A stretch of DNA of 64,000 bases from GCF_053078305.1 NZ_CP166879.1; one strand, 5' to 3'; shown: positions 6,860 to 25,712, counted from the stretch's first letter. Numbers and translations are program-made. Notes: generated by a model not told the origin, from the sequence alone.

Positions 6860-6904
6860 AATTTGCTCCTTATCGGTGGTTAAGATTTACTGGTGTAATA
6901 AATG

Positions 6905-6936
6905 AAAAAAGCCGCGTCTCCCGGAGAAGACGCGGC
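6905..6936 (-). terminator. Rho-independent terminator
   Basis: Stem gccgcgtct/agacgcggc with 8-nt loop; on the minus strand followed by UUUUUU (plus-strand aaaaaa at 6905-6910). Confidence 0.5.
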
Positions 6937-7269
6937 CTGATGGACGAAATTAATGAGGTTTATTGTCTGAGAAGCCCTCCACTGGCGAGCCACGCATTAA
7001 GCTGTTTTCCGGCATCAGCTTCAGAGTTCCGGCAGCGTCAGCGTCGCTGACCTTCCGCGTTGCGGATAACCCGACGGAAATGCATTCCCGGGTCATCCTG
7101 GATAAACACATTGCGGTAAGCGGTTATGACAGCAACCGCCTGCCCGTATGAGAAAGATCCTTCAGCCAGGACATACTCTGTGTGTAACCCGGCATATCTG
7201 GTTTCTCCTGATAAATAGCCTCTGCCATACGTTGTGGCAGAGGCTGAAGCATGAAACTGACTTCAGGGA

Positions 7270-7725: not shown

Positions 7726-7800
7726 GGTATTTACCTCTCTGAGTCATGACGATGACACTGACAAATCAGGTGATAAAGCGTAAAAGGCGCAGAATAGCCG

Positions 7801-10323
7801 TTATGCCGGTAACTCCGGGGGTAATGCTTCTTCCAGTCGGTTAACCATATTGCCGAGATGGGATGCATCATATTCCATGACGGGGCGTTGCCTGATGATA
7901 CTGACCACCAGTGGTTTGATTAACATATTGGTCGCGGCCCGTTGTTGTATACCGGCGGCGAAAATGATCTCCAGAGCATTCTGATCGATAACACGGGCCA
8001 GATTCGCGTTCAGATTTTCAATCTCATGTCCGGTCAGCAGGAAACTGCCGGCAAGCCATGTCACCTGCTCCTGAATCATTGCCAGAATTTTGACGCGATC
8101 TTCTTCAACCAGCGCTCCGGCAATTTTTCCTGATACAGCGGAGGCAATCATTCCCCCCAGAACACCGCCAACCACACGCCCTGTCAGTGCACCAAATGGT
8201 CCCAGTGGACTGAACAATATCCCGCCCGCCACTGACCCGACAGCACCACCTGCCACACCGGAAGATGCCACGGCAAGATTCCTGATGAACTGCGCACCGG
8301 AGATCCGTCCCCGCAACATTTTGATCATGTCAGGGCCGGTTGTGACAGCTACCAGTGCCAGAGATGTCACCAGCGTACCCTTCATCACTTTGTTCAGGGC
8401 ACTGATATTTCCTGCACCGGTCCCCTTCTGAAGAGCCAGTCGGACAGTCGGGCTGGCAGTCGAAAAATCAATGTGCTTCAGCATACCCTGAACAACAGTG
8501 AGCCGGTGAAGTTGCTGGGTTGTGACGTAGACAGCCAGTGTGCGGGTGAAGGTTTTTCCTGCCTGGACAGCAGCTGTCTGCAGGGCAGCATCGCGATCGC
8601 CGGTGCTGAGCCAGAAGATCGATGCCGTCAGGGCAAAACTGATCCCTCCGGCCGCCAGACTGACAACCGACCCCTCGGCAATATCATAAGTGACCGATTC
8701 GATGGTCCCGAACCGGGTGATATTACGGGCCTGAGTATAAGTCAGATGTCCCCGACGAATCAGCCGGGACGCTTCTGCGGGATCGGTTACACCGGGTACT
8801 TTACCTTCGCGGATCTTATTCCTCATGGTTTCAACAGCGCCGGCATACTGATCACGGGGGACTTCCAGTTGCATGGGGCCATTATTTCCCATGTAACGAT
8901 ACTGTCCGTTTTGTCCGTCGAATGCCGCACCGACGCTACGGGCTGCAGTTGAACAATATTTCGTCTGGATTTCTGTTCCGCTGACCAGTCTGTCTGCTCC
9001 ATTTCTGGCATTATTATCACCGAGGATCCGTGCGTTTTTCAGACGGACTCTGTCGACAATATGGTTTCCCCGTTCAGCGGCAAACCCATGTCCCTGCCCT
9101 CCGGAAGCAAACATTTTCTCATTTGTACTCCAGGTTTCCGGCAGTTTCATGAGAATCAGACCATTCGCCGTTGCATCGGAAATAAAGCTGTTGTAAGGGC
9201 GTTCATAAATTTCCTGACACAGTGTTTCTGTTTCGCGACAAAGAGAGGAGCAGTACCATTCCGGATCCGGCTTATGATTTTCCGGGGCATGATGTACTTC
9301 TGTCAGCCCGCAGGAGGCACAGATACGAAGCTCATCCACGTGATGGAATGATACAAAACGGCGACCTTCTGAAAAGGGATACCAGTCACCGCCGTCCAGG
9401 CAACGATCGAGAAAATCGTCATTCGCTTCCGGTGATAAATTCAGGCGGTTCCGGAAGAGCGTTTTCAGTTCATCAGGTGTGAATGACAGGTTCTCTTTCA
9501 ACTGTTCGTTAAACCCTGCCATGTTTCTTTCATACCAGGCATTGTTCAGTAACCAGTTTCCGTCTGCCAGTTCAAATTCCCTCAGCTCTCCCCGGGAAAT
9601 CCGTTGAGAAATGAGCGTCAGCCAGATGCGCTCCGTCAGTGAGTCAGGAAGGCTGTAATCGTTTTGCAAACTGGTCAGCCACGATTTACTGTTGAGCACC
9701 GGTTGTTCTTCCAGTGTCTGGCTGATGGCACAGGTCAGTTTTTTCAGCGCCTGGATCTGGCTGGCCGCCCATAGCAGCGTCACTAATGCAGCCAGCCAGT
9801 ACAACAACCCGCCCCACCACATCAGTGACGGTGAAATATCGTACTGTAACGCGATCAATGGTGCGCATGCAGAACACGCCATAAGGAAAAAGGCAGTATA
9901 AAAACAGCAGTAATACCCGTTAATTTCCTTGCTGATATCTTCTGGTGTGATCCCGTTCTGCTGAATGTTTTTGATCTGCAGGGGAACAGCCAGCAGACCA
10001 CCGGCGAGAGCAGTGGTCAGAATAAATTTCACAGAGTCAAAGGTGTGAGCCTCCAGCGCGATATGTTTACCATCAAGTCCCCACATGAAGCTGATGATCA
10101 TTCCGGCAATCGTCAGAAATACGCCTGCCAGCCAGCGAATATGGAACAACCGGGTTATGCGTTCGGTGATATAGCCAGCCAGTAAGGCCGGGCCGAACAG
10201 ACACAGCAATATGAGCCCTGCCAGCGCAGAAGCCGTGCTGATTAATGCTCTGAACAAAAGGCGAAGAATGGCAAATCCTGCGATCAGCAGGATCAGCGCG
10301 CCGACTATCTGTAACATAGTCAC
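7801..10323 (-). CDS. Large inner-membrane protein, YeeR-like
   Basis: 840-aa ORF immediately downstream of flu (position of yeeR in CP4-44); multiple N-terminal TM helices, Cys/His cluster (CASCGLTEVHH…CSSLC), Gly-rich hydrophobic C-terminal segment. Confidence 0.65.
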   Translation of the reverse strand: MTMLQIVGALILLIAGFAILRLLFRALISTASALAGLILLCLFGPALLAGYITERITRLFHIRWLAGVFLTIAGMIISFMWGLDGKHIALEAHTFDSVKFILTTALAGGLLAVPLQIKNIQQNGITPEDISKEINGYYCCFYTAFFLMACSACAPLIALQYDISPSLMWWGGLLYWLAALVTLLWAASQIQALKKLTCAISQTLEEQPVLNSKSWLTSLQNDYSLPDSLTERIWLTLISQRISRGELREFELADGNWLLNNAWYERNMAGFNEQLKENLSFTPDELKTLFRNRLNLSPEANDDFLDRCLDGGDWYPFSEGRRFVSFHHVDELRICASCGLTEVHHAPENHKPDPEWYCSSLCRETETLCQEIYERPYNSFISDATANGLILMKLPETWSTNEKMFASGGQGHGFAAERGNHIVDRVRLKNARILGDNNARNGADRLVSGTEIQTKYCSTAARSVGAAFDGQNGQYRYMGNNGPMQLEVPRDQYAGAVETMRNKIREGKVPGVTDPAEASRLIRRGHLTYTQARNITRFGTIESVTYDIAEGSVVSLAAGGISFALTASIFWLSTGDRDAALQTAAVQAGKTFTRTLAVYVTTQQLHRLTVVQGMLKHIDFSTASPTVRLALQKGTGAGNISALNKVMKGTLVTSLALVAVTTGPDMIKMLRGRISGAQFIRNLAVASSGVAGGAVGSVAGGILFSPLGPFGALTGRVVGGVLGGMIASAVSGKIAGALVEEDRVKILAMIQEQVTWLAGSFLLTGHEIENLNANLARVIDQNALEIIFAAGIQQRAATNMLIKPLVVSIIRQRPVMEYDASHLGNMVNRLEEALPPELPA

Positions 10324-10393
10324 TCCGTGATGAATATCATGTTATTGTTAATGCCAGCGAATGTGGCGTTGAATATCCGTTGCGCCGGTCCGG

Positions 10394-10418
10394 GTCCCGG
10401 TCATGATGACCGGGACCA
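10394..10418. repeat. Near-perfect 25-bp palindrome between flu and the YeeR-like gene
   Basis: ggtcccggtcatgatgaccgggacc reads the same on both strands except the central base. Confidence 0.8.
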
Positions 10419-10437
10419 CAGAGAGGCGATGGTTCTG

Positions 10438-13400
10438 TCAGAAGGTCACATTCAGCGTGGCCTGACCGTTATAGCCTTCAGCGCTGCTGCCGCTGACGCT
10501 GTGGACATAACCTGCCTGAACGCCCAGGGTGATGTTTTCCCGGACACGGGCTTCCAGTCCGGCCTGCAGGTCCAGTGACGTACCATTCTGTGACGGTGAG
10601 AACGTCATGTTACTGCCGGCTGCGGCTGTACCCATGCTCATGTCCCCCCGGGAGCTGAAGGTGCGGATAACAGAAGGCTGTACCCACCAGTTCACCGGCA
10701 GTTCACGCACACTGTGTTTGGCACTGCCGCGCAGGGTGTCACGGGATGAGGTGCCTTTACCAAAGTTCATATCGTTGTGGCTGCCCAGACGGAAGCCGGC
10801 ACGCACATGTTGTGCACTGCCATGCCCGAACTTCACATAACCGGCGTTGTCCTGACCGTCATCCAGGGAGAGTCCCTGCCAGGTGTACTGCAGTTGCGGC
10901 TCCAGCATCAGATTGTCAGTGATACTGAAGGGCAGACCGGTTTCCAGTGAACCCAGCCAGCCCCGGCCCCGGACGCGGAAGTCGTTATTGTCCGATGAGG
11001 CTTTCATGCTGTGGCGGGTTCCCTGGGCCACAATGTCAGCCCACAGGCCGGAGGCGTTGTGTATCAGATTCAGGTATCCGCCCAGGCTGCCGGCATCATC
11101 CCGGACCGTGCCGGCACGGGAGCCGTCATCATCCTTAACATCAACGGAAGAATGGCCTGCAGCACCATACACCCCTGTCGTCAGAGACATACCGGCAACC
11201 TCTGTTCTCATCAGGTCACCCTCCAGACGGACGAAGCCATAGCTGCCGCTGCTTTCCGGCGTGGCCCCACGGACAATACCGCCGTTGTTATCGTGACCGA
11301 GATGGCCGCCCTGAATGCTGAGACGGACGCTGTTATTTTCACCGTTTACACCGGTCTGATGGCTGCGGGAGCCTGCCAGAATCCGGTCATAGTCCATTGC
11401 CTGTGTCAGCATGGAGGCATACAGGGGGACTTCTGCACGATAAGCATTTTCACTGCGCAGATACCAGCTCTCATCACTGTCCCGGTTGAGGGAGTAGTTA
11501 AAGGCCCCGGCCTGCAGCCTGTTCCCCTGGACAAAGGCCCCTTCCTCCGTGGTGGCACCGTTAATGGCTTCCACCACCTGAATACCCTTACCGCTGGTCG
11601 CCAGCCCCGACGCACTGTTGCCGGCGTTCACCATGTTCAGGATGGTTTTTCCGGTTGCCCTGCCGCCGTCAATGACCAGTCTGTCAGCATTGTTCTGTGC
11701 CATATCCGGGCGTACACGCAGGCTGATGGTGCCATTCTGCCCGTTCAGGTTTTTCACTTTCAGGGTTGCCGGTACGAACTTCCCTGTGCGGGTGGAGGTG
11801 AAATGAATCTGTCCGGCATGGCTGAGGTCATCCACCACCGACTGCACCGTGGCGTTATCAGGGATATTCCAGGTGGCACCGGAGGCGAGAGTGACATTCG
11901 TGGGGTCAATGGCACCGTTCAGCACAGTGCTGCCGGTCAGCTTCAGGGCTGTACCGCGCTGAGCAATGACATCCGTGGTGACGGTACTGTCGTTCAGCGT
12001 CAGCGTGCCTTCATTCAGGTTGACGGCTTTCTGGGTGAGTGTGGTGTTGCTGACAGTGAGTGTGCCACTTCCTGATTTTTCCACGCTGCCGTTACCGGTG
12101 AGAGAGCCTCCCTGCAGGAGTGCATCGCCTTCACGGATGGTCAGGGTATCGTTGTTCACCGTCTTCCCGGAAAGGGTAAGTATGGCGCCGTTATTCAGCG
12201 TGGTGGTGCCCGCCAGTGTGCCGCCCCTGGCGGTGAACAGTCCGCCATTTACCGTGGTATCCGTGGCCGTATCACCGGCGTTCAGCGTGAATGAACTGCC
12301 TTTTTCCAGCATCAGGGCATCCGCCTGACCGCCTCCGATACTGAATGCCTTTCCGTCGCTCCGTGTACCACTGACAGCGGCACCGGAATCGGCCAGCAGT
12401 ACACCGCCATTTCCCATGGATACGGTGGTGGCGGTACCACCGTTGCGGACATCCAGCGTTCCGCCATCATCCACACGGGTATTAGTGGCTGTGTGTCCGC
12501 TCAGCACATCCAGACGTCCGCCATTTTCCAGTACGACATTATCAGCTTTACCCTCCACAACAGAGAATGCTCCCAGGCGGTTTGTACCGGTAACGGTTGC
12601 AGCCGTACTGGTAACCAGTGCACCGCCCGTGTTCTGGGTGACATCAGACGCTTTACCGCCGGCATTCACCTGCAGCTTTCCTTTCTGGTTGATGGTGGTA
12701 TGCGCGGCAGTTCCTCCTTCCTTAATCACCTGCCAGCCATCACGGTTTATCAGCGTCTCTGTTGCCGTGCCACCGTTGTGTACATACTGGTTACCCCCCT
12801 CCAGCCGGGTGTTATGTGCCTCTCCGTGTACCGTCTGGTCACCACCGGCGTAAATGAGGGTGTCCCGTGCCATCCCCGAAGACCAGATAACCTGCCGGCC
12901 ATTTTTGTTGATGGTGGTGGATTCAGCCGTCCCTCCGACCATCTGACCGCTGGACACATTTTCAGACTCCGGACCACCTTCTGCACCGGTGTTGACGATG
13001 GTTCCGGTTGCCAGTCCGCCATGTTTTATGGTCTGGTAACCATCCAGGTTAATAATTGTACCGGCAGCTTTCCCTCCCCCGTGTACCCACTGCTCACCTC
13101 TGTTATCCAGCGTGGTGTTCACCGCCAGTCCGTTAAGGCTCTGCCCTCCGCCATCACGAATAACCGTATCACTGGCAGTTCCTCCTGCCTGCACAATCTG
13201 ACGACCATTTGCGGTGACAGTGGTGTTTCTGCCTGTGCCACCCGCGTTTATCCATTGCCCGCCGGTGTTTTCGTCACTGTCCGGCCCCAGCTCAAGCCCG
13301 GTACTGACAGTCACGCCATCAGCTGTTCCGGATACAAACTGGTTGTCATGGTTTACCAGTGTTCCGCCATTCACTGTTTCACCCGGGTGCACAACGATGT

Positions 13401-13566
13401 CAGCAGCCAGCACCGGGAGTGACGTGACCGCGGCAAGAGACAGTGCAACCGCCACACCGCCACGTTTACCCCGTGCGCGGGCCAGTTCGGAGGCAACCAC
13501 GAAAGCGCCCGTAATGTGATTCCATACCAGCCTGTAGCAGGTATTCAGATGTCGTTTCATCAGCAT
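10438..13566 (-). CDS. flu: Antigen 43 (Ag43) self-associating autotransporter adhesin
   Basis: 1042-aa product matching remembered Ag43 along its length: extended signal peptide MKRHLNTCYRLVWNH…, passenger repeats, C-terminal beta-barrel ending …GYNGQATLNVTF. True start probably Met at 13560. Confidence 0.95.
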   Translation of the reverse strand: MLMKRHLNTCYRLVWNHITGAFVVASELARARGKRGGVAVALSLAAVTSLPVLAADIVVHPGETVNGGTLVNHDNQFVSGTADGVTVSTGLELGPDSDENTGGQWINAGGTGRNTTVTANGRQIVQAGGTASDTVIRDGGGQSLNGLAVNTTLDNRGEQWVHGGGKAAGTIINLDGYQTIKHGGLATGTIVNTGAEGGPESENVSSGQMVGGTAESTTINKNGRQVIWSSGMARDTLIYAGGDQTVHGEAHNTRLEGGNQYVHNGGTATETLINRDGWQVIKEGGTAAHTTINQKGKLQVNAGGKASDVTQNTGGALVTSTAATVTGTNRLGAFSVVEGKADNVVLENGGRLDVLSGHTATNTRVDDGGTLDVRNGGTATTVSMGNGGVLLADSGAAVSGTRSDGKAFSIGGGQADALMLEKGSSFTLNAGDTATDTTVNGGLFTARGGTLAGTTTLNNGAILTLSGKTVNNDTLTIREGDALLQGGSLTGNGSVEKSGSGTLTVSNTTLTQKAVNLNEGTLTLNDSTVTTDVIAQRGTALKLTGSTVLNGAIDPTNVTLASGATWNIPDNATVQSVVDDLSHAGQIHFTSTRTGKFVPATLKVKNLNGQNGTISLRVRPDMAQNNADRLVIDGGRATGKTILNMVNAGNSASGLATSGKGIQVVEAINGATTEEGAFVQGNRLQAGAFNYSLNRDSDESWYLRSENAYRAEVPLYASMLTQAMDYDRILAGSRSHQTGVNGENNSVRLSIQGGHLGHDNNGGIVRGATPESSGSYGFVRLEGDLMRTEVAGMSLTTGVYGAAGHSSVDVKDDDGSRAGTVRDDAGSLGGYLNLIHNASGLWADIVAQGTRHSMKASSDNNDFRVRGRGWLGSLETGLPFSITDNLMLEPQLQYTWQGLSLDDGQDNAGYVKFGHGSAQHVRAGFRLGSHNDMNFGKGTSSRDTLRGSAKHSVRELPVNWWVQPSVIRTFSSRGDMSMGTAAAGSNMTFSPSQNGTSLDLQAGLEARVRENITLGVQAGYVHSVSGSSAEGYNGQATLNVTF

Positions 13567-13751
13567 TTCCTTAATCAGAGTGAGAGTGAATAAAAAAGCC
13601 GGTATCCACAGATGTGGATACCGGCAGGTAAAGGGTTACAGTGCCAGAGGTCCGGCTGACGGAAGTTTCTGACGTGTGGCTCTGTTGTTCCCTGAATGTC
13701 TTTCTGTACGTATCTGTGCATGTTACTGACAAAGGTTATTATTAGCTTATC

Positions 13752-13787
13752 GATCGATATAAACGATCGATAAAATAGGTATCGATC
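13752..13787 (-). promoter_or_regulatory. agn43 phase-variation switch: three GATC Dam sites in the OxyR operator region
   Basis: GATC at 13752, 13765 and 13784 within tatcGATCgatataaacGATCgataaaataggtatcGATCg, ~190-220 bp upstream of the flu start codon. Confidence 0.8.
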
Positions 13788-13892
13788 GTTTTATTCTATT
13801 GTTTGGCTATTGCACGGACAAGAGAGACAGTAACGAAAACAGCGCTTTTGTGAGCAGACTCAGAGTCAGGGAGGGCATCAGTCACGACAGGT

Positions 13893-14765
13893 TCAGAAGA
13901 AAATCCAGTTCCATACCGCACGGGCAACAGAGACCACCGTGTTACGAACAGCGCGCAGGGCCGTACGGACAACAGAGGCAACACAGACGCTCTCCGCTGT
14001 GTCAAATATCCGGTCCACCGCACCGGTAAACTGTTCACGGGCCTGAGACCGGACAGATTCCGTGCGCAGCTCGTCCTGCAGTCGGGTCATCAGGGGACTG
14101 GCGGCATGGTCGGGAAGCGCTGTCATGAGCGCACTGACCAGCGTATCCAGTTCCCAGCCGGTGCGGGCCGATACGGCCACAACCGGATGTACGGGCCGGA
14201 ACAGACGGAATACCGCCTCCGTTTTTTCGCGAATATTCTGTGCCTGTGCAGGAGAAGGCTGAATACCGGCCATATCCCATTCATGGCAGGGCTCCGTTTT
14301 GTCGGCCTGCGTCACCACAAACAGCACCTGCTGATGTCCCCGGTGCAGGATGTGTCGCCAGAAATACTCATCCACAGACAGGGCCCGGTCATCGGCTTTA
14401 ATCAGCCACAGCACCAGGTCAAGTTCAGGCAGAATGTCACGGTACAGGGCCTCATACTCTGCATCCCTGTCCCGGCTCTCGCCCACCCCGGGCAGGTCAG
14501 TGATAACCATGCTGTGACCGTGGCCACTCAGACGGAAGCGCCGTACTTCCCGGGTGCCGGCGTGAACATCACTGACCGGGGTGACCTCCCCCTGAAACAG
14601 TGCATTACAGAGTGAGGATTTACCGGCCCCGCTTTTACCCATAATGCCAATCACGGGTTCGTGACGGGTGAGTTTGCGCAGATGTTCCAGGATGTGACGG
14701 GAAAGTGAGTAAGGCAGGGAGGAGAGCGGTTTTTCAATTGCCTCAATGGCATCAGACGGATTCAT
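13893..14765 (-). CDS. yeeP: YeeP/YkfA/YfjP-family GTPase
   Basis: P-loop GIMGKSGAGKSSL plus G-motifs (DLPGVG, TQADK); ~290 aa from Met at 14765 (ORF extends to 14804); upstream of flu as in CP4-44. Confidence 0.8.
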   Translation of the reverse strand: MNPSDAIEAIEKPLSSLPYSLSRHILEHLRKLTRHEPVIGIMGKSGAGKSSLCNALFQGEVTPVSDVHAGTREVRRFRLSGHGHSMVITDLPGVGESRDRDAEYEALYRDILPELDLVLWLIKADDRALSVDEYFWRHILHRGHQQVLFVVTQADKTEPCHEWDMAGIQPSPAQAQNIREKTEAVFRLFRPVHPVVAVSARTGWELDTLVSALMTALPDHAASPLMTRLQDELRTESVRSQAREQFTGAVDRIFDTAESVCVASVVRTALRAVRNTVVSVARAVWNWIFF

Positions 14766-15208
14766 ACATGTATTCCCGGTGAAAAAAGACAAAACCCCGC
14801 GCACCGGAAAGGTGGCGGGGGATCCACGGAGATAATATCTGTCTGAAATTGTTTTGAATCGATGGGATTGTTGCGTATTAACATGAAGGAGATCAGGACT
14901 TATCCGTTACTGGGTGATCTCCTTCCATGAAAATACGCAGTTATTGTTAAACAGCAGGCTGATTTCTCCGTAAAGGGGAAAATATTTATCGGCTGCATGA
15001 TTATCAGGTGTGTCTGTGTTTACTGCTGTGAGTATTTTTCAGTGTATTGTGGGGGAGATGTCAGTGGGAGATATTAAATTTACGTTTATAATTATCTTAC
15101 TTCTTCTGTGTGTTTTTTATAAGAGTGCACACGTAATGATATCTGTTGATACCATGTGGTTAAGTGTTTCCCTTCCGGGTCATGCGTACTTGCAAAATGG
15201 CATCTGAA

Positions 15209-15238
15209 TCGATCACGGTTTGGCCAAACCGTGATCGA
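15209..15238. repeat. Perfect 30-bp palindrome in ORF-free AT-rich region
   Basis: tcgatcacggtttgg|ccaaaccgtgatcga: 15-bp arms, no spacer, contains two GATC sites. Confidence 0.9.
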
Positions 15239-16106
15239 ATAGAGAGGAATACGCACGTAATGATTAAATGCTTTTGTTACACCATTCTTCCGGCATGAAT
15301 ATTTATCCAGTTCCCTTTTTTATTTGTGTAGTGATACTGTCGGAATAGCGTTCAGTAATGTGAAGCGTCCTGTTAAAAATCTTTAATAAATGTGTCACCC
15401 TGGTCAGGAAATATCTGCTGAGATATTATTAGTTGGTGGTGTTTTTACTGAGTAATAGCTGGCTTTTAATTCCTGAACTGAAATACTGTCGCTCGTCAGG
15501 GTTTAATTAAAACTGGATGATGATGTGAAAATGAAGGCTGGTTTTTGTGTTTGTCGAGGAAGTGTTGTTTTTATCCATTCTCATCATTGGCTGGCTGCGA
15601 TTATACAGAAGTATTTGAAGAAAAAATGGTGCATTTTATCTGTGCCGGCAGGGAGGGGGATTTTCCTGATATGTCAGTATTAAATGGTTTTTGTTATTTA
15701 TAAAAATGTCATCCTGTCCATAGAATATTGTACTGAGTACTCAGCATTCAGCGCAGGAACTGTCATCTTCTTTATTTTATTCTTCTTCAGGAGGGCAGTT
15801 TTCTGAAAGCGTTACTCCGGGGAAACTGTTTATGTTTATTCCCGGCAGGAAACCCGTACCTGCAATACCCTGGATGATGCTTTTTGCTGGTACGTTGTTG
15901 TGTGAAAATTAATCAACATGTGTGCTCCGGAGAGCGCCCGTAGACGCACAGATTCATTCTGACATTCTTTAGCGACAAAATATCGATTGGTTATTATTTA
16001 ACCTGAAAATCGACAGAAATTTTTATCCTGTATTGATTCTGATGCTATTTTTGCTATTAGTAGCAATAGTTGCGGTACTTTATGTTCTGTGTGTTGTAAG
16101 GTCATT

Positions 16107-17597
16107 ATGCCATACTTTCAGTATCCTGATGAGTTTCCCCTGAGCTCGCTGCCTCCACTCATTCGTGATGCCGTTATTGAAGCTCAGCAAATCACGCAGG
16201 CTCCCCTGGGGCTTGTGGCAGCATCTGCCCTGGGCGCTGTTTCACTTGTCTGCCAGAATCTGATTGATGTCTGCAGACTGAATACACTGCGGGGGCCGGT
16301 TTCTCTTTTCTTACTGACGCTTGCTGAGTCCGGAGAACGAAAAACCGCAGTGGACAAATTATTAATGGAGCCCCTGTACCAGCAGGAGATGCTGTTATAT
16401 TCCAGACACAAAAATGAACTGACGACATGGAAAAATAAGGAAGAGCTTTTAAAGGCGCAGAAAAAAGCATTGTTGTCAAAACTGAATAAAGAACTCCGCA
16501 AAGGCGCGGATGAGTCAGAAACGCTCAGACAACTGGAAGCGCTTCAGAAAAACAGAGGGGAAAAACCTGTAAGATATAAATTCATTTTTAATGATGCCAC
16601 GACAGCAGCAATTAAAGATCAGCTTTGTGGTCAGTGGCGTTCAGTGGGTATCATGTCTGATGAAGCCGGTATAATATTTGATGGGTATACCCTGTCTGAG
16701 CTGCCTTTTATTAACAAAATGTGGGATGGCTCCGTATTGTCGGTGGACAGAAAGAATGAACCCGAACAGATGATTGAAAATGCCAGAATGACATTATCTC
16801 TCATGGTACAACCCGGTCTTTTTGACCGATATATGGAGCGAAAAGGTTCTGTTGCCAGGGACAGTGGTTTTCTTGCCCGTTGTCTAATCAGTAAACCTGC
16901 CACCACGCAGGGGAAACGCTTTATTAACGGAGCAGTGACCCCGGGAGAATCATTAACGGCATTTCATGAACGATTAATGGAACTGGCCAGAGGCAGTATT
17001 GAAAAATCCAGTAAGGATGAACGTTATTGTCTGCATTTTTCTCCAGAAGCGCAAAAAATATTTATTGATCACTATAATGTTCTGGAGCAGGATTTGTCTC
17101 CTTCCGGACCCTTAAGCCAGTTTCGGGGGCATGTTTCAAAAAAAACAGAAAACATTGCGAGAATTGCTGCGTTATTGCAGTATTTCAGTCAGGGTGAAGG
17201 GAAAATCTCTGCCGATATCATGACGTCTGCTGTCGTAATAAGTTCGTGGTACACAGATGAATATAAAAAATTATTTGCGTTACCTGATGAATCTGAACTG
17301 CAGCTGCAGGACGCCCGGGAGCTGCTCGACTGGCTCATTGAGGAGTGCCGCGGAGAATGCCCGCCCCGTGTCAGGAAAAATTATATTCTCCAGTGTGGCC
17401 CGGGCCGGTTCAGGAACAGGAAAAAGCTGAACGTCCTGCTGAACATTCTTGCATCTCAACTCAGGCTCTCTGTCGTGCAGGAAGGAAAAACCACCTATGT
17501 CCTGCTTTCCGAAATAAACAATATCACGCTGCCTGAACTGAATGCGTGCTACAGCCAGAAACTGATAAGATGGCATGAGCAATCCTTTGGCTTATAA
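16107..17597 (+). CDS. DUF3987 protein (YfjI-like; related to P4 alpha primase C-terminal region)
   Basis: ~496-aa ORF with AAGGT RBS before ATG 16107; family assignment from memory of island-borne YfjI-like proteins. Confidence 0.55.
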   Translation: MPYFQYPDEFPLSSLPPLIRDAVIEAQQITQAPLGLVAASALGAVSLVCQNLIDVCRLNTLRGPVSLFLLTLAESGERKTAVDKLLMEPLYQQEMLLYSRHKNELTTWKNKEELLKAQKKALLSKLNKELRKGADESETLRQLEALQKNRGEKPVRYKFIFNDATTAAIKDQLCGQWRSVGIMSDEAGIIFDGYTLSELPFINKMWDGSVLSVDRKNEPEQMIENARMTLSLMVQPGLFDRYMERKGSVARDSGFLARCLISKPATTQGKRFINGAVTPGESLTAFHERLMELARGSIEKSSKDERYCLHFSPEAQKIFIDHYNVLEQDLSPSGPLSQFRGHVSKKTENIARIAALLQYFSQGEGKISADIMTSAVVISSWYTDEYKKLFALPDESELQLQDARELLDWLIEECRGECPPRVRKNYILQCGPGRFRNRKKLNVLLNILASQLRLSVVQEGKTTYVLLSEINNITLPELNACYSQKLIRWHEQSFGL

Positions 17598-17718
17598 TGT
17601 TCCCTGTTGCTGAGACGGATTATTCAGTGGTGGTATCGCAGTATGCCCGTCACCCCCCGCTTCTGCATGAGGGTGACGGAGGAAAAGTAAGTGTGCGGAG
17701 GCCCGGGAGCGTTATGAA

Positions 17719-18420
17719 TCAACAGGCGTATAACAGGTACTCGTCAATCATCAGTTCCAGCTCGCGCTTTTCCCGTTTGCGCGCCACAGCCCAGTTTTCA
17801 AGCTCTGCATGTGATTTATGCTTTAACTCTTCAGTCCAGGGCTGCATGGAGTGGGCACACATCAGATCATACCAGCACAGCCATATCAGCGTGTGGTAGA
17901 GATCACGATCGTCGAAACGCCGGAGCAGGCTGTTCAGCCTGTTTGCCAGCCGGTTTTCACCCAGACGATGTGGCTCACTGAGTAAAACGCCGCCCAGATT
18001 AAAATGTGTAAGCAGCATGATTTCATGGGTCTGAATGCTGGTCATTAACCCTTCCTGAATGGCAGGAATGAACGGTGGTGTTCCCGGGTTGACGACCTGA
18101 TAGAGTCCCTGTGGTGCCACTGAGATGATAGTGCCTTTTTCCGGCAGAAAAAAGTGTGCCAGGGTCAGACGGTGATAACCATGAAGATGCGGAGACCCCA
18201 TTCCATGAGCGACGATAAGCCTCGTTCTGATGCTGGATGAGCAGCAGCTCACACCGGTTTTCAAGTTTTTGCATAATATTCTCTCCTTTAGCGCGCAGCA
18301 AAATGCCTCCGGGGGCCGGATCATGCCTTTGCTGCGGTGGAACGGATAACGGTCAGGAATTACGGACGGGACTGTGCAATACGCGCCTGCAGCCAGGCTT
18401 CCACTTCGCTTTTCAGCCAT
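17719..18420 (-). CDS. Hypothetical protein, probably frameshifted or with a later start
   Basis: Long ORF overlaps alpA by 60 nt; a GGAGAG-ATG start at 18265-18267 opens a different frame (ORF 18023..18301) that runs only 92 codons before stopping, with the long frame offset from it by one base. Confidence 0.3.
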   Translation of the reverse strand: MAEKRSGSLAAGAYCTVPSVIPDRYPFHRSKGMIRPPEAFCCALKERILCKNLKTGVSCCSSSIRTRLIVAHGMGSPHLHGYHRLTLAHFFLPEKGTIISVAPQGLYQVVNPGTPPFIPAIQEGLMTSIQTHEIMLLTHFNLGGVLLSEPHRLGENRLANRLNSLLRRFDDRDLYHTLIWLCWYDLMCAHSMQPWTEELKHKSHAELENWAVARKREKRELELMIDEYLLYAC

Positions 18421-18566
18421 CGGGAGCTACGGCCCAGTTTGATGGGGGCAGGAAAGGCACCATCCTTGATGAGCTTGTAAAACCATTTATCGGTCAGGCC
18501 GGTCAGCTGAGTGATAAACGACATGTCGACCATCTGGTCATCCATCAGTGAAACTGGGGTATTCAT
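18360..18566 (-). CDS. alpA: AlpA-family phage/island transcriptional regulator
   Basis: 68-aa product from Met at 18566 with GGAGG RBS; AlpA-type HTH (…LTGLTDKWFYKLIKDGAFPAPIKLGRSSRWLKSEVEAWL). Confidence 0.75.
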   Translation of the reverse strand: MNTPVSLMDDQMVDMSFITQLTGLTDKWFYKLIKDGAFPAPIKLGRSSRWLKSEVEAWLQARIAQSRP

Positions 18567-18951
18567 GAAAATGTTCCTCCGGATGTTGTTAATCTCAACC
18601 AGCGTTGGTGATGAAAACAACGCACCACCTTCCCCGGCATAACAACCGGGGAAAAACGTAAAAAATGAGTAGGGGAATATTCCTGCCAGGAGAGAAACTG
18701 TTGTGTACAGGCAATACAGGTTGTCTGTTTTGTCAGTGAAGCCGGTATAAACGGAAGATGATTTTGTGTTGCCGGAATATGGGATGGCGTTTTGCCGTGA
18801 CGGGATCAGTATTTTCAGTGATGATTATTACTGCACAGGGGAGTATCGGAGATAAACCACGCCCTGTACCTGCCAGAGCGGTGGTTTGTATTTACTGAAC
18901 GGAAGATAAAGCAGAGGTAAACACTGTCGCGGTGAAGGTAGAAGGCTGAAA

Positions 18952-19743
18952 TTATTCTCTGTAATTACAAACAACAGTGATCTTATCCGGTTTTTTTACC
19001 GTTACGGGTTTCAGAGGGTCAATTTTATATACAGGGGTAATGAGCACGCCGGAATTTATGGAAAAAAGAGGGACCCAGCAATAAACGTCCGGATATTTCT
19101 GTGTCTCCGGAATACCTTTTGCGCCAGAGACCATCAGATCTGTAACGCTCACAAAAAATGACTGCCGCAAATCAAAAAAGTACTCGTTATATATCACATC
19201 CTTTGCCAGCAGGATGACGGCATTACCAACAGCCGCTTTTACAGGTATTTTATCAGATGGATTATCGTGATTGTATATTGTTCTTTCGATATAAATAAAA
19301 CAGGCATATTTCGTCTTCTCCCCGGATAGCTGCATCTGGTATTCGCAAATGTCTTTGATACACCGACTTTCAACCCTTCCAATCATCTTATCCCGGCGAT
19401 AGTGTCTTTTATGTTTCAGCGCGTACAGAACACCATTTGAACTGTCAAACTCCAGGATTCTTCTGGTGAAAAGTTTGTTTTCCCAGATTTCCAGACAATA
19501 CTTCTCTGCACTGACGACATTGCGTTTGCGAGGAAGATCCCGTTGATACACTCCATTTAATAAGCGTGACTGCAGTTCGCCTGCAAGTTGATAATAACAG
19601 TTAATATCGTTAAGGACAGGTGCTGTGGCGCTGAGTAATGCGTTGATTACCTTAGAGCGCGAAAGTTTGTGGGTATGACAGTACTCATCCACAATTCGCA
19701 GCGTCTCATCACTGGTCATATTGAAAGTTATACGTGTTGTCAT
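18952..19743 (-). CDS. Hypothetical protein with N-terminal ribbon-helix-helix-like region
   Basis: 263-aa ORF in visibly AT-rich DNA; N-terminus TRITFNMTSDETLRIVDEYCHTHKLSRSKVINALL has the strand-helix-helix pattern of CopG/Arc-type RHH domains; remaining ~215 aa unassigned. Confidence 0.5.
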   Translation of the reverse strand: MTTRITFNMTSDETLRIVDEYCHTHKLSRSKVINALLSATAPVLNDINCYYQLAGELQSRLLNGVYQRDLPRKRNVVSAEKYCLEIWENKLFTRRILEFDSSNGVLYALKHKRHYRRDKMIGRVESRCIKDICEYQMQLSGEKTKYACFIYIERTIYNHDNPSDKIPVKAAVGNAVILLAKDVIYNEYFFDLRQSFFVSVTDLMVSGAKGIPETQKYPDVYCWVPLFSINSGVLITPVYKIDPLKPVTVKKPDKITVVCNYRE

Positions 19744-20069
19744 GATGATGTTTTCTGTTAATCATACGGGTTGATATGCATAACATTTCATAAAAAATAC
19801 TTTTAATTCATATAATTGATTTTTTGACTGGTTTTATCCTCGTGTGGTGGAAAGCAGTATTACTGCCACTGTAGCCAGCATAAATCTATCACACAGAACC
19901 ACCGAAAATGAAGCATTGCTCAGGGGAACACTCATACGAGTTCTCTGAACTGTGATAACCAGTATTTTTCGTTTTGGATGATTTGTTTATCGTTACAGCT
20001 ACAGGTAGTTCATGTACCATTAAAAAATAATTAAGGTTAATTAGTATTATTTATAGAAGTATGTTTATG

Positions 20070-20900
20070 TAACTCTACCTTGTAAATGAACTCTGTCATT
20101 GTACCTTGTAATTCTATCCTGTAATTCTACCTCGTAAATACACCTTGTAACCAGGTCCTGCAGAAGTCTGTCTCATAGAAGTATCTGTGCAGCGATATTC
20201 TCTGTAGTACTTGTAACACTGTCCTTAACCCTCTCTGCTGCAATGTAATCCCGTAACACCTGAATATAAATCTGTAATGTACACACTGACTGTAACGTAC
20301 TTTGTTAAGTAATGCCTGTTGTGTGGAGACTATTCTGGGTCCGCCATTGCTTTTGTGCGTTTGTGTAAGTGTTTTTGGCTAAATAAGAGTATGACTTCGC
20401 CAGTGTTGATACAGTGGATAACGGTGATTAAGGAATTACTGTTAATGATCTGTTCCTGCAGCTTACCTGATGAGTTTTGGTAGTAATACGTAAAAGAGTA
20501 TGCCTTATACCATTAAAAACAGCCTTACGGCGTGTTGTTTAACCCTGTACCTCTGTTACTCATGTAGTACGTTACGGAAAACTACGTTAATTGTCATATC
20601 GGGTTATGGCGTTATGCCTTCAGTATTAAAAACATTTTTTACCGGAGAAACAGGGAAGTGGAAAGGCTTTCGGGATAACGTCAGGCCATTCTGACGGTAT
20701 TACGTTAATCACAGTACAGGATAACGGGAGGGTAATGGAATTTTAAACCAGAGTAGTTCCGCTGTTGTTCACTGGAAAAAGTGATTGCCCACACGCGTTA
20801 TAAACGCCTTCCCGCTTCAGTCTGGTTACCAGAGCTTCAGGCGTTATATGCGCTGTAACGGGCTGTTACGTATGCTGTTCTCTGTCTGCTTCTGATACCC
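20070..20900. repeat. Dense array of short GTAAC/GTTAC-core repeats (iteron-like) in AT-rich intergenic region
   Basis: At least 20 copies of yCTTGTAAy, CTGTAATG, CTGTAACG, CGTTACGG, ACGTTAAT, GGATAACG, GCTGTTACG in both orientations between divergent genes 18952-19743(-) and 20996-21595(+). Confidence 0.6.
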
Positions 20901-20995
20901 GTGGACGTCGTTACCGGAGGTCACCCTGCCTGATAACGTTTTCTTCAAATTTACGGCAACGCGTCTTCCTGTGTTACAGAACACGAGGAAGAAAC

Positions 20996-21595
20996 ATGAA
21001 GACTTACAACGCCAATCCCGGTTACGAAATGGATCCCCAGCTCCTGACACACTTTAATCAGCATCTGGATTCATTATTCGGGGTCTATTCGAAGCTGTTA
21101 CCGTTCAGAATGGATTTTGCTTACCGAAAAAACACATTCAGCTACGGATGCGCCTGCAGGTACGCCATGTGCGCGGAGATGCTGCAACTGATTAACGAGG
21201 TGGGAGAGAAACTGGTCGGGTATGCCTGGGTGATGGAATATACAGAACGTAAAGGGCTTCACATTCATTTTGTGGGCTATCTGAACGGTCAGATCCACAG
21301 GAGTTCGTATCTGGTATCCAGATTGATGGGAGATATCTGGAGGCGGGTTACCGGGGGGGATGGTTACTACCACTGGTGCCGGTTTAATAAAAATTATCCG
21401 GTAAACATTAATCACGTCATTCACTATTCAGACCACAAAGCGGTGAATGCTTTACGCTATGCCATTAGCTACCTTGCCAAACGAGAACAGAAAGAATGTG
21501 GCATCGTTCTTGGTTGCAGCAGGCTTCCTGAAAAAAGTCACCGGGGGCGACCGCGACTGGACAGCACCCTGCCGGGGATATGTTCTCAGGTATAA
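20996..21595 (+). CDS. HUH-motif protein (candidate inovirus-Gp2 / YagK-YfjJ family)
   Basis: 199-aa ORF with GAGGAAG RBS; candidate HUH motif (GLHIHFVGY) and Tyr motif (RYAISYLAKRE) resembling rolling-circle Rep/relaxase motifs II and III. Confidence 0.5.
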   Translation: MKTYNANPGYEMDPQLLTHFNQHLDSLFGVYSKLLPFRMDFAYRKNTFSYGCACRYAMCAEMLQLINEVGEKLVGYAWVMEYTERKGLHIHFVGYLNGQIHRSSYLVSRLMGDIWRRVTGGDGYYHWCRFNKNYPVNINHVIHYSDHKAVNALRYAISYLAKREQKECGIVLGCSRLPEKSHRGRPRLDSTLPGICSQV

Positions 21596-21970
21596 GGTTC
21601 TGAGCGACAACTGCGGACTGGCTCTAATCTTTGCAGTCGGTTCCGGAGGCTACTTCAGAGGCACTATGCATTTTTTACGATGTGGTTACTCCGTATGAAC
21701 GAAACCATACGGAGACTTAACCATACATGACACACCAGTAAAACCCCTGATGGCTGCAACGGTGCTGCATGCGCTGGATGTCCATCTCTGCTTGCTGACA
21801 GTTTTTTACGTCGGTGGGCCATTGTGTGACAACCACAGTGCTGTAACAGCAGCCTGCCTGTTTTACCTTAACCCCATTCCAGATTTTTAACTGAACCGCC
21901 ATTCACACCCTGACCACGCTGCCCGTACCGGGACGCTTGCTGCCTGCGTGTCGTCTGGCGGCTGAGGAAT

Positions 21971-22360
21971 ATGACGATGTACGCAAAATCTTTTCTCGCA
22001 TTCGATGGCAACGGATGCCTGACCGTTGCCCGTACTGCACAGACAGCGCCTTACGATCGATACACCTGTCACCTTTGCGGCAGTGCGCTCAGATACCACC
22101 CGCAATGCGATACCGAACGTCCCTGGTTTGAACACACTGGCGAAGGGCTGGCTGAGCACGGTCATGAGTGCCCTTATGTCAGACCGGAGCGCAGAGAAAT
22201 ACTGTTGATTAAACGCTTACAGCAATGGGTACCGGATGCCTTACCCGTGGTGCGTAAAGCCAGCTGGCACTGCAGACAATGCCAGCACGATTATTATGGG
22301 GAGCGGTACTGCACACACTGTCATACAGGGCGTTTCAGTGAGGAGGCAGTGGCAGGATGA
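21971..22360 (+). CDS. Cys-rich putative zinc-ribbon protein (paralog 1)
   Basis: 129 aa; CxxC near N-terminus (CHLCGS), WFEH motif, C-terminal WHCRQC-x10-CTHCH zinc-ribbon-like pattern. Confidence 0.5.
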   Translation: MTMYAKSFLAFDGNGCLTVARTAQTAPYDRYTCHLCGSALRYHPQCDTERPWFEHTGEGLAEHGHECPYVRPERREILLIKRLQQWVPDALPVVRKASWHCRQCQHDYYGERYCTHCHTGRFSEEAVAG

Positions 22361-22782
22361 ACGGTCTAAAAACGGGGCTGGGGATGACGCCGGGTGAGCA
22401 CATTATCAGTGCCGATTCTGCGCTCAGCAGAAATATCAGGCATTGTTTCTGCCTTTCCTGTCGTGGTCGGTTGATTTTGCAGACAGATGCTCAGGGGGCG
22501 TGGTTTGAGCATGATTTACATGCCCTGAGCGAGCAACAGAAGGCGGCCTGTGTGGTGCTGAATCCGGAAAAATCCCATCCTTACATTGATGATATGGCGA
22601 TGTTTTTATCGCCATTACCGGTCGTACTGGAGTGGCATTGTGTGATGTGTGAGCAGTTTTTTCATGGGAAGAAATTCTGTGAGGCCTGTGGTACGGGGAT
22701 TTATTGCAGAGCAACATGTACGAAGTCTGTTTACAGCTACCAGCCAGATTTGTACCAGGACTGCGGAGGTGCGAGTACTTAA
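22357..22782 (+). CDS. Cys-rich putative zinc-ribbon protein (paralog 2)
   Basis: 141 aa; same architecture as paralog 1 (CFCLSC, WFEH, WHCVMC-x10-CEAC); start overlaps upstream stop (ATGA), GAGGAGG RBS. Confidence 0.5.
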   Translation: MNGLKTGLGMTPGEHIISADSALSRNIRHCFCLSCRGRLILQTDAQGAWFEHDLHALSEQQKAACVVLNPEKSHPYIDDMAMFLSPLPVVLEWHCVMCEQFFHGKKFCEACGTGIYCRATCTKSVYSYQPDLYQDCGGAST

Positions 22783-23253
22783 TCCAAAATATCCGCTCTG
22801 CGCAGGGCGTTCAGAGGTATTGCCAGCCTGCATTTTATCCGGTGTTTCGCACCCACCCCGTTCGTGACACAAAGGCGCGACACCGGATATCCGCAGTCCT
22901 GCTTACCTGAATAAAACCCGGGGGATTGATTGTGTACTGTGGTGCGAAATCGCACCGTGATCGCGGATTCGCCGAATCTGCACTGTGGTGTCAATAAACC
23001 ACACGCGAGAGTCCTCTCCGTATTGATCAGTGCATCAGGACGATTTCTGCATTGTTAATCCAGGGGCTGCATTATTCATTTCCCTGCTAATGGACGTTAC
23101 ATCCTAGATATTCATGATCCTGATTTCCCTGAGCAGTATCAGCGCTTATTGGAGCGTCTGGATTATCTGACGAAGCCCGGTACTAAAGCATCAGGCCAGC
23201 GTAACTCTGGCTACAGCGGTTTTTGACCTGTTGTAACTGTAAGGTGATTTATT

Positions 23254-23820
23254 ATGTATACAGAATCAAACGTTAAGCTTTCCTGTAACGCCCTCTGGCA
23301 AAAGTGTGTCCTTGCAACTCTGTATCGGGCTGCAGCCACACATCCTGAAATTAAATTATTACAATTTAAATTAATACCTTGCCCTGGTATTAATAAGGCC
23401 ATTCCCTCTCTGATGGCTGATTTTACTGGTGAACTGCATAGACTCATTTCTGAATATTTGCAGTGCAAGCGACGTAAAGATAAATCTGTTGAGCCCACCC
23501 CTTTATATTATCTCTGGAGTAGGGAGGCTGTGGCTAACGGTACCACTCCTTATCTTATGGTGCTGCTACTTAATAATGATGTCTGGTGTAAGAGTCGTGA
23601 GGTGGTGGTTCTCAGAAATCTGATTGAGCAGGCGTGGGGAAAAGTATTGGGTGAAGATAACTCCATTACACATCTGGTTGTGTATCCTGAAGTGCTGTCG
23701 TTGGTATTTGATGCAGCTAACACATACAACGCTGAGCCTGGTGTACTGGAACAGACAGCCCGGGCTTACATTGAATCGCATGGTGCTGTTGAACGTTATC
23801 TTGGGTGTAGTGACTTTTAA
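23254..23820 (+). CDS. Hypothetical protein
   Basis: 188-aa ORF with AAGGTGA RBS 8 nt upstream of ATG; no motif recognised. Confidence 0.45.
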   Translation: MYTESNVKLSCNALWQKCVLATLYRAAATHPEIKLLQFKLIPCPGINKAIPSLMADFTGELHRLISEYLQCKRRKDKSVEPTPLYYLWSREAVANGTTPYLMVLLLNNDVWCKSREVVVLRNLIEQAWGKVLGEDNSITHLVVYPEVLSLVFDAANTYNAEPGVLEQTARAYIESHGAVERYLGCSDF

Positions 23821-24267
23821 CGTCAGGTGACGCATTGTCACTTCTGACCTGCTACCTGTACGCCGGAATATAATGGTCAGAGAGGCATATTTCGACGCCC
23901 CTAATCTGGGGCGTTTGATTCTGGATGTCTGGAACAATCCGGGCTTTGTGTCACCGGGCGCATCAAAGCAGTACCACCCGGGATGTGGCGCTGGATCGTC
24001 ATTTACCGGACTGCGAAGACATACTTAAAGAGGTGATATGGGCGTTCAGTGATTTTGTCCGCGATAATCGTGGTGTGTATGATCCGGAAGCCCGTTACCC
24101 CGCCGGTAATACCTGGTATCCCGTAACAGGCCAGTTCTGAAAGCACAGCTCAGCAGATTCCCCGCATTCGCACAATCTTCATAAATCTCACAGAGGACAT
24201 TCTGACCATGTTGACTACAACAAGCCACGACAGCGTATTTCTGCGTGCCGATAATTCCCTGATTGAC

Positions 24268-24516
24268 ATGAACTATATCACCAGTTTCACCGGTATGACC
24301 GACAGAGGGTTTTATAAGCTGATCAGTGAAGATTCATCAAGCCGGGCCGATCCAGCCGCAGGTATAAAAGCGAAGTGTCACAGTAGATACAGTAACGAAT
24401 CGAAGAATCACGGGGGCAGAAGTATGAAACGTGTTGTGATACCGGTACGCTGGCAATGTTCAACGTGTCAGCGCTGGTATTGTGGCGCTGTTCCCTGGTG
24501 CTGGTCCCCCCCGTGA
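24268..24516 (+). pseudogene. alpA-like gene remnant
   Basis: Only the first ~22 codons (MNYITSFTGMTDRGFYKLISED) resemble AlpA (compare MSFITQLTGLTDKWFYKLIKDG at 18360-18566); the rest of the ORF is unrelated. Confidence 0.5.
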
Positions 24517-25712
24517 ATCTTCCTGCGTCCCCTCCGGTCAGCCGGCACTTTGTCATCCTGACTGATTCATCATTCCTTTCATATTGCCAGTCACAGCTGC
24601 TTGCATCGAACCGTACTTGTGTTGATGCGTCTGCACCGACTTAACCAAATTCAACAGAGATAAAATAGTGCAAATCACCGAAGCCTTACTTTCAGAGCCG
24701 GGGGAAATCCGGCGTTTTGTTCAGCAGGCGGTGGATCACTGGCCGCATCTGCTGGCAATCCACTTCACACTTCATTCGACCAGAGTAAATATTGATGATT
24801 ACTAGATTCGTGTATTTTATCAGGCATTTTACTTGCGAATAAATCCCCTTGTTATCCAGCGAAACCACACCGGTAGCTATTACCATATGTCGTAATACAC
24901 TAGTTACAGGAAAAACATGCAGGTTCCGCAATACGTTGTGTGTTGCTGCTTAGTCAGGATCTTTTCTTCCATGCGAGATACGACAACACTTTTGAGGAAG
25001 GATGTTCGTAACTGGTAGAGTTACTACAACAGGCATGGGAGGCTCCGGCTCTGACAGACATTGTACTGTGGAATGTTGTTACAGGTTGGGGCGGCAACCG
25101 TGCCAGGAGACTATGAGCCGTTCACGGCATTAAAGGCCACACTTCAGTCGTTTACATTCCCTGTGGTGGCAGGCATCTTCCGTTAAGGCGTCAGAGCGTT
25201 ACCAACGTTATGTTGTCATGGCTCACCTTTCATAGTCGATGCTTATCTGGTGACTGAAACTAGCCGCAGATAAAGAGTGTGAAGTTGATACCATGGAGTG
25301 GAGTGACGTGCAGGCAGGAGATTCGCTCTATGCAGGGTTGTGAGATGAATTCAAACCGGCTGTCAGCGCCAGTGATATTTGAAGATTCGTCCGGTTGTTA
25401 TCCAGTGTGCATTAAAAACCCAGACATTATGGACAATACAACGGCTTCCATAACAGGGAGGAGCCTGTTTATTATCCGGGCGTAATGACTCACCTTTGTG
25501 GGCTTTTTCCCGTCGCGCTTTTAACGTTGAAGGCATTTTCTGCCTGCCGATTCAGGACAGCGACAAAAGCCATATCAGACTATTGGTCAATGATGACCAG
25601 CGTCTGGAGTAGATGATAAGCCAAATTGATAAGCTGGAATATGTGATGAAAGTGCAACGTAATCAGTCCAATCCGACGATGTTTAACAAGAGTACGGTGT
25701 TTTTTCAGTAAG

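Follow-up and report, generated by a model that had tools for sequence, protein, structure and literature searches.

An apparently scrambled satellite in a 64-kb stretch of DNA is very probably the conserved backbone of a pheV-integrated island

A stretch of 64,000 nucleotides from NZ_CP166879.1 (GCF_053078305.1), hereafter the window, contains between 13.9 and 25.0 kb a group of genes for YfjI-family, AlpA-family and YagK/YfjJ-type proteins. A preliminary description of this group, made from the sequence alone, regarded it as the scrambled and partly deleted remnant of a P4- or satellite-like element that lacks an integrase, carries a duplicated alpA and arose by fusion of at least two integrative-element modules. 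The locus therefore raises the question of whether its gene order was produced by rearrangement in this lineage or was inherited. As described below, it is very probable that the region represents a conserved backbone, namely that of an island integrated at pheV and akin to CP4-44, the SRL pathogenicity island (SRL PAI) or GI-pheV, that its architecture has been inherited, and that the gene order is not the product of local rearrangement. The region would then be an ordinary, already known pheV-island backbone with minor and partly shared lesions; what appears to be a scrambled satellite would be a normal pheV-type pathogenicity-island backbone, and no new kind of element would need to be postulated.

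Conservation and setting of the gene series

The series consists of the genes for a GTPase, YfjI, hyp190 (a conserved hypothetical protein of 190 amino acids), AlpA, YagM, Gp2 (a YagK/YfjJ or “inovirus Gp2” protein), two zinc-ribbon proteins, a YagK-like protein, alpA2 and a UCP030791-family protein. This order is shared, and is collinear gene for gene, in E. coli GmF052, OkiPb01677, E16 and PSUO2 (loci L001, L002, L004 and L009, respectively). The copy in strain E16 resides at the CP4-44 site near tRNA-Asn, and in PSUO2 the right-hand block (a YagK fragment, YagK188, alpA2 and UCP030791) directly follows the zinc-ribbon genes; in relatives, this block continues to ECs1377 and to contact-dependent inhibition (CDI) genes. 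Of 5426 complete E. coli genomes, 795 cover at least 80% of the convergent junction formed by the 3′-part of the YfjI gene, hyp190 and alpA1 (16900-18650) at a single collinear location, and some match to it occurs in 3495 genomes. In a sample taken at evenly spaced ranks, seven of 12 matches span the junction with the same three annotated genes, and most of the 25 evenly spaced matches from a 6.8-kb search extend within a single locus from AlpA, or from YfjI, as far as the zinc-ribbon genes. Across the backbone, even the best complete E. coli genomes reach just 92-95% nucleotide identity. The arrangement that had been called scrambled is thus found in the same order and orientation in many genomes (hundreds to thousands in E. 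coli), an outcome that the preliminary description itself had named as refuting its interpretation.

The same gene families occur, identically ordered, in the SRL PAI of Shigella flexneri, in CP4-44-type islands and in GI-pheV's modules “flu” and “yee”. The gene table of the SRL PAI contains a YfjJ-like Gp2 (orf39), Hha (orf40), a Vis/AlpA-like protein (orf41), hypothetical proteins, a YeeP GTPase (orf46) and Ag43 (orf47), followed by YfjQ and further genes up to L0010/DUF4942, and a separate AlpA-family gene, rox, is located beside the integrase (PMC6980539). GI-pheV islands are mosaics in which the “flu” and “yee” modules recur, and islands related to them use P4-type integrases (PMC11537424). 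The window differs from the SRL PAI, CP4-44 and GI-pheV through small lesions of its own (hyp190, small65, alpA2 and UCP030791), and it differs from many relatives in that it contains a YagM-family gene and an array of 13-bp repeats where these have only Hha.

The attachment site is located at 1694-1715 (- strand), between yghD and DUF4942, where the reverse complement of the terminal 23 nt of tRNA-Phe (pheV) is present with one C missing (22 of 23 nt). This attR is a unique exact match (none expected by chance) that was recognized by eye and then confirmed by exact search, because the 1-nt deletion hid the site from a mismatch-only search with the 23-nt sequence; attR variants of this kind are on record for GI-pheV (PMC11537424). 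The position of attR places the integrase and pheV end of the island to the right, past 64 kb, and the island is longer than 62 kb. There is no tRNA gene in the 64-kb window, and no integrase gene was found in the window or in annotated relatives, whichever part of the window they match. Consequently, the notion of an element without integrase holds for the window but not for the island, whose integrase end lies outside; the absence is a property of the window rather than of the element. The first 16,000 nucleotides of the window are collinear with an annotated locus of E. coli FDAARGOS_944 (94.8% identity), in which the order is gspL-yghD, DUF4942, DUF957, DUF5983, CbtA, CbeA, DUF987, RadC/JAB, antirestriction, DUF932, Ag43 and GTPase, and the yghD/gspL flank was identified through this annotated relative. 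The attR-side block, GTPase-Ag43-DUF932-antirestriction-RadC-CbeA/CbtA-DUF4942, and the pheV attachment are the same as in GI-pheV (PMC11537424), and the backbone lies between this block and the cargo.

The following map was built from a listing of open reading frames (ORFs), Pfam and PHROG scans, and tblastn searches with proteins of annotated relatives.

13896-14765 (-), YeeP/YfjP-like GTPase, the first gene of the attR-side block; 97% amino acid identity to an annotated GTPase family protein
16107-17597 (+), YfjI-family DUF3987 protein, intact; Pfam PF13148, E=2.3e-95; 52.6% identity to K-12 YfjI
17719-18274 (-), hyp190, downstream of alpA1, frameshifted (split into two frames by tblastn)
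18360-18566 (-), alpA1, AlpA/Vis-family winged-helix regulator or excisionase of 68 amino acids, intact; Pfam Phage_AlpA, 35.4 bits (cutoff 21)
18952-19743 (-), YagM-family (UCP007319) gene, intact; 93% identity to an annotated YagM family protein
19744-20995, spacer of 1.25 kb
20068-20150 (+), direct repeats of 13 bp (TGTAAnTCTACCT), six to seven in an array; TRF score 82
20772-20825 (+), Hha/YmoA-family remnant with an 81-bp internal deletion (DNA alignment with the Hha gene of L005)
20996-21595 (+), Gp2, intact YagK/YfjJ (“inovirus Gp2”) gene for a putative HUH-type nuclease; both catalytic motifs present
21977-22360 and 22357-22782 (+), two overlapping DUF7828 plus Zn_ribbon_11 genes, intact; Pfam E=8.6e-28 and 1.9e-22
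23030-23226 (+), C-terminal YagK/YfjJ-type fragment, corresponding to YfjJ residues 150-206 (BLASTP), also frameshifted (two frames in tblastn)
23254-23820 (+), YagK188, full-length YagK/YfjJ homolog of 188 amino acids; Pfam YagK_YfjJ_C, 38.5 bits
23873-24028 (+), small ORF
23994-24480 (+), 487-bp segment carrying alpA2, flanked by a 10-bp direct repeat, TGTGGCGCTG (23984-23993 and 24481-24490)
24208-24386 (+), alpA2 pseudogene with a 13-bp deletion that shifts the frame after codon 41
24668-25038 (+), UCP030791-family pseudogene; first 45 codons open (24668-24805), the rest degraded or diverged to about 25038
about 25.5 kb onward, cargo with an ACT-domain pseudogene, DeoR, ribokinase and FucP

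The YfjI gene, which is convergent with hyp190 and alpA1, also matches a PHROG family annotated as “DNA helicase” (phrog_2373, E=1.2e-81). A DUF3987 gene had been noted at this position and is present; its presumed likeness to a primase C-terminus was not borne out, as Pfam detects DUF3987 alone and no primase domain. For DUF3987, a function as a mobile-element helicase has been predicted (PMC5862659). The protein is a putative helicase-type P-loop ATPase, and its sequence contains a Walker A motif of deviant form (AESGERKT) and a motif resembling Walker B (IMSDEAG). A PDB sequence search returned no match for YfjI or for Gp2, and NCBIfam added nothing for the proteins of the region. The frameshift of hyp190 is due to a 17-bp deletion near codon 18, as seen in DNA alignments with L001 and L002. 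An intact frame and a score above the cutoff place alpA1 in the AlpA family (PF05930), and PHROG describes it as “excisionase and transcriptional regulator”; the intact alpA on the opposite strand had been correctly noted.

The YagM-family protein shows 24.5% identity to K-12 YagM and has no Pfam match even at E up to 5, and its homologs carry PF27701. The 13-bp array lies about 325 bp upstream of this gene, and matches to its pattern cluster there alone. It tracks yagM in the six E. coli loci checked, being present in L001, L002 and L005 and absent from L003, L004 and L009, which have no yagM; it was not found in the homologous loci of Citrobacter or Pectobacterium. The array is possibly a candidate protein-binding site. 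On the minus strand, the repeats form a ladder of overlapping promoter-like hexamers. The idea that YagM is a ribbon-helix-helix protein that binds the repeats is speculative, its sole support being a weak match to aCcr1 (E=0.002), and the AlphaFold2 (AF2) model was unusable (pLDDT 53). An Hha gene is annotated in relatives.

Gp2 is the HUH-type gene that the preliminary description had named. Its residues H89 and H91, of the H-hydrophobic-H metal-binding motif, are nearly invariant, and its YLAK motif, which holds the catalytic tyrosine, is conserved, in homologs down to 35% identity. It scores below the curated Pfam cutoffs for REP_ORF2-G2P (23.8 versus 27.8 bits) and YagK_YfjJ_C (22.5 versus 25.8 bits), and some of its homologs do carry these domains. 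The two zinc-ribbon genes are paralogs with 31% mutual identity. In an alignment of YagK188, P-Y-L replaces the H-x-H motif and Q replaces Y, so that both the HUH histidines and the tyrosine are lost; this protein may be a catalytically dead Rep-like protein that is kept for another role.

A second, broken alpA does exist, as had been claimed, but it is far more than a remnant of some 22 codons: compared with the reference allele of GmF052, about 57 of 63 codons are kept, and the part that is recognizable in frame comprises about 27 codons. The GmF052 reference allele itself stops early relative to alpA1. PSUO2 contains an identical frameshifted alpA2 (99.2% identity over 487 bp), annotated as “AlpA family transcriptional regulator, frameshifted”, and 2540 genomes, O157:H7 among them, contain sequences homologous to the alpA2 segment. 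E. coli OkiPb01677 is without the 487-bp segment and retains one copy of TGTGGCGCTG at the junction (blastn breakpoints and junction alignment), which looks like loss of the segment by microhomology deletion in that lineage. The short reading frame at 24650-24790 that had been suspected to be a gene fragment corresponds to the 45-codon start of the UCP030791-family pseudogene; this frame is 100% identical to an annotated 45-amino acid product, and its N-terminus matches a 165-amino acid protein of OkiPb01677, the homology to which breaks at about 24780. This pseudogene forms the right edge of the backbone, before the sugar-utilization cargo. Features beyond those listed in the preliminary description are the frameshifted hyp190, the YagM gene, the DUF7828 pair, two YagK/YfjJ-type sequences and the Hha remnant.

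Relation to other elements and alternative origins

CP4-57 of E. coli K-12 (intA-yfjH-alpA-yfjI-yfjJ ... yfjP-yfjQ ... yfjZ-ypjF) has many families in common with the window, namely AlpA, YfjI, a YfjJ-type HUH protein, the GTPase, DUF932, antirestriction, RadC-like and CbtA/CbeA-type toxin-antitoxin proteins. It is correct, as was pointed out, that the order and orientation in the window are unlike int-alpA-yfjI-yfjJ. In CP4-57, alpA (+), yfjI (+) and yfjJ (+) are co-directional and directly follow intA, whereas the window has YfjI (+), hyp190 (-), AlpA (-), YagM (-) and Gp2 (+), with the YfjI and Gp2 genes running counter to those for AlpA and the GTPase, and tens of kilobases separate the module from the integrase end. 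At the DNA level, the proposed comparison with CP4-57 and P4 aligns only 700 bp of yfjI to CP4-57 (68%) and nothing to P4, and the yagK-intF stretch of CP4-6 shows no DNA similarity to the region. BLASTP against K-12 gives only a marginal match for Gp2 (E=0.005). Judged from these sequence comparisons, the divergence from CP4-57 is evidently old.

In Citrobacter (L012, 7043-9798) and Pectobacterium (L014, 7710-15649), the backbone is compact and single-copy: an operon, Gp2-AlpA-hyp191, diverges there from the series YagM-GTPase-...-RadC-CbeA-CbtA-DUF4942, and Pectobacterium has a phage-type integrase 2 kb beyond DUF4942. More remotely, the Pseudomonas tmRNA islands I23, I44 and I55 have a tyrosine integrase at one end, AlpA, inovirus Gp2-like, RadC and helix-turn-helix (HTH) proteins at the far end, and variable cargo, often defence genes, between the two (PMC12595487). 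These islands belong to another genus and differ in attachment site (tmRNA) and integrase type, and the likeness described here is one of gene content and layout.

The idea that the region is a degraded P4-like phage satellite or phage-inducible chromosomal island is hardly credible. An AlpA/Vis-family gene is indeed shared with P4, related islands use P4-type integrases, and helicase-like genes are frequent in satellites; however, the window has no homolog of the P4 alpha primase-helicase, YfjI being devoid of a primase domain and yielding only four weak matches (23-33% identity), none of them P4, when compared by tblastn with 50,697 phage records. At the nucleotide level (blastn), the 8-kb region matched neither P4 nor any satellite in the phage collection, and neither psu/delta/sid nor any capsid-related or capsid-hijacking family was matched by the ten region proteins in Pfam, NCBIfam or PHROG. 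Moreover, the flanking genes for Ag43, DUF932, ArdB-like antirestriction, RadC and CbtA/CbeA are typical of genomic islands, not of satellites.

It is also improbable, although less so, that two tandem integrative elements, each with an alpA and a yfjJ-type gene, were fused, inverted and partly deleted in this lineage. Such a history would account for two AlpA-family genes in opposite orientation and for three YagK/YfjJ-type sequences, one of which is a C-terminal fragment; it would also fit the mosaic nature of GI-pheV islands, the repeat-flanked alpA2 segment that is absent from some relatives, and the simpler single-copy layout in Citrobacter and Pectobacterium. Nevertheless, the entire series, with both alpA genes and every YagK-type sequence, forms one contiguous, collinear stretch in unrelated E. 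coli strains, also where the site of integration is another, and the frameshift of alpA2 is common to PSUO2, whose single backbone contains both genes. The proteins encoded by alpA1 and alpA2 are 66% identical over 47 residues, and the genes have no blastn match to each other; a recent duplication of alpA was thus ruled out, and the two copies are old paralogs. Nor is there any att-like tRNA 3′-end between 15 and 25 kb, where cryptic att repeats had been suggested: the mismatch-only search with the 23-nt pheV 3′-end found nothing, this interval included, and a regular expression for the tRNA T-loop to CCA together with nine tRNA 3′-ends gave no credible site there. A repeat scan of 13.5-26 kb yielded short chance-level pairs alone, besides the 13-bp array and a 30-bp palindrome. 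Since the contiguous backbone is shared, any fusion would be ancient, dating back to before the backbone family arose, and would not be peculiar to this window. Of the partial deletion that had been proposed, five small lesions within a mosaic island, as published for GI-pheV (PMC11537424), are what remains, and a local fusion is not indicated.

Several points weigh against an inherited pheV-island backbone as outlined here. The genome counts reflect nucleotide coverage and evenly spaced rank samples, short of a full synteny census. In Citrobacter and Pectobacterium, AlpA is located downstream of Gp2 and not of YagM, which implies that the architecture has been reshuffled on deeper timescales, and alpA1 is just 25% identical to K-12 AlpA (BLASTP, E=6.6e-4). 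The roles of YfjI, Gp2 and the AlpA1 lineage in excision and replication are ones that we infer, and hyp190, directly after alpA1, is broken here, so that the module may not be fully functional in this copy.

Decay, selection and possible roles of the backbone genes

Decay of the backbone is real but small in scale. It comprises the 17-bp deletion in hyp190, the 81-bp deletion in Hha, the frameshift in the YagK fragment, the 13-bp deletion in alpA2 and the degradation of UCP030791; at least one of these lesions, the frameshift of alpA2, is common to other strains. The ratio of nonsynonymous to synonymous substitution rates (dN/dS), calculated pairwise between the window and orthologs from small numbers of substitutions, is 0.0-0.4 over the seven intact genes, as follows.

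alpA1, 0.0-0.08
GTPase, 0.10-0.12
zinc-ribbon genes, 0.13-0.25
Gp2, 0.20-0.28
YagM, about 0.3
YagK188, 0.3-0.4

All of these values point to purifying selection on the intact backbone genes, and thus to a backbone that is maintained and not simply decaying. A large share of E. coli genomes contain the genes for YfjI, Gp2, the zinc-ribbon pair, YagM and AlpA, on which purifying selection acts; any role that they have in the replication or movement of the island after excision is a question for the whole family and not for this window.

The AlpA family includes CP4-57 AlpA and SRL PAI Rox, members that are tied to excision or integrase control. By analogy with these two proteins, control of integrase expression or excision would be the most likely function of AlpA1. 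The combination of an HUH nuclease and a helicase is a classic pairing for replication or transfer, and the presence of a putative nickase and a putative helicase in the backbone suggests that the island, once excised, might be replicated by a rolling circle or transferred. A mechanism can be proposed tentatively on this basis: AlpA1, as a Vis/Xis-like DNA-binding protein, would control transcription of the P4-type integrase of the island or serve as a directionality factor and would thereby gate excision, after which Gp2 would nick, and the helicase-like ATPase YfjI would unwind, the excised circle for its replication or transfer.

A broader proposal, which we regard as rather unlikely, is that the backbone of the whole family, and not of this window in particular, constitutes a self-contained mobility and replication unit consisting of AlpA, Gp2, YfjI, the zinc-ribbon pair, YagM and the 13-bp array. 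If this were true, the circle excised by the integrase would be nicked and replicated by the rolling-circle mode or passed to a phage or plasmid for transfer, and YagK188, being catalytically dead, would have a regulatory function. For the Pseudomonas islands with AlpA, Gp2-like and RadC core genes, hand-over to a jumbo phage for transfer has been shown (PMC12595487). Equally doubtful is the opposite view, in which the backbone is kept for host or island functions unrelated to mobility, for instance with AlpA1 as a transcription antiterminator or as an activator of adjacent genes of the island and with Gp2, YfjI and the zinc-ribbon proteins directed against phages or plasmids. Purifying selection even in islands without an integrase, such as the CP4-44-type locus of strain E16, the conservation of YagK188 despite the loss of its catalytic residues, the anti-phage genes that neighbor this kind of module in CP4-57 (abpAB and rnlAB) and the richness of the Pseudomonas relatives in defence cargo would all be in keeping with such functions. 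On the other hand, no defence family was matched in the library scans, which did not include the PADLOC library, and both the ties of related AlpA-family members to excision and the nuclease-helicase pairing argue for mobility.

Cargo and other features of the window

The right two-thirds of the window consist of cargo and insertion sequence (IS) elements. In GmF052, the N-terminal 45 codons (L001, 22135-22272) and a C-terminal part (L001, 32192-32461) of UCP030791-type genes lie 10 kb apart, and DeoR, ribokinase, FucP, phosphotransferase system (PTS) and LacI sugar cargo is located between them; this separation of the two parts around the cargo suggests that the sugar cargo entered by recombination at or within the UCP030791-family gene. 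In the window (24780-25711), neither the downstream UCP030791 partner nor ECs1377 is present.

Between the GTPase gene and Ag43, at 13585-13789 (-), there is a full-length match to the Rfam IS102 (isrC-type) small RNA (252.9 bits), which corresponds to the known regulatory region upstream of flu; it was the only hit of the Rfam scan and lies outside the region under discussion. The spacer between the GTPase and YfjI genes contains a 67-bp insert (15189-15255) with a perfect 30-bp palindrome (15209-15238) that includes two GATC sites. This insert is absent from the same spot in L002 and L004 and present in L003; L003 and L005 also have diverged copies of it in other places, and a palindromic repeat of small size that is mobile may be involved.

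Segments of the window are of sharply different age. Among 5,426 complete E. coli genomes, the best show just 92-95% identity to the core flank and backbone (window 1-16000), and for the type I secretion and giant repeat-protein cargo (32252-46789) there is one E. coli genome with 99.1% identity. The host may belong to a divergent Escherichia lineage that has recently acquired its secretion and repeat-protein cargo. Two IS66-family elements, at 30418-32376 (truncated) and 51264-53680, flank parts of the cargo, and split PAPS-reductase/DUF3440 (IbrA-like) frames are located at 32989-34214.

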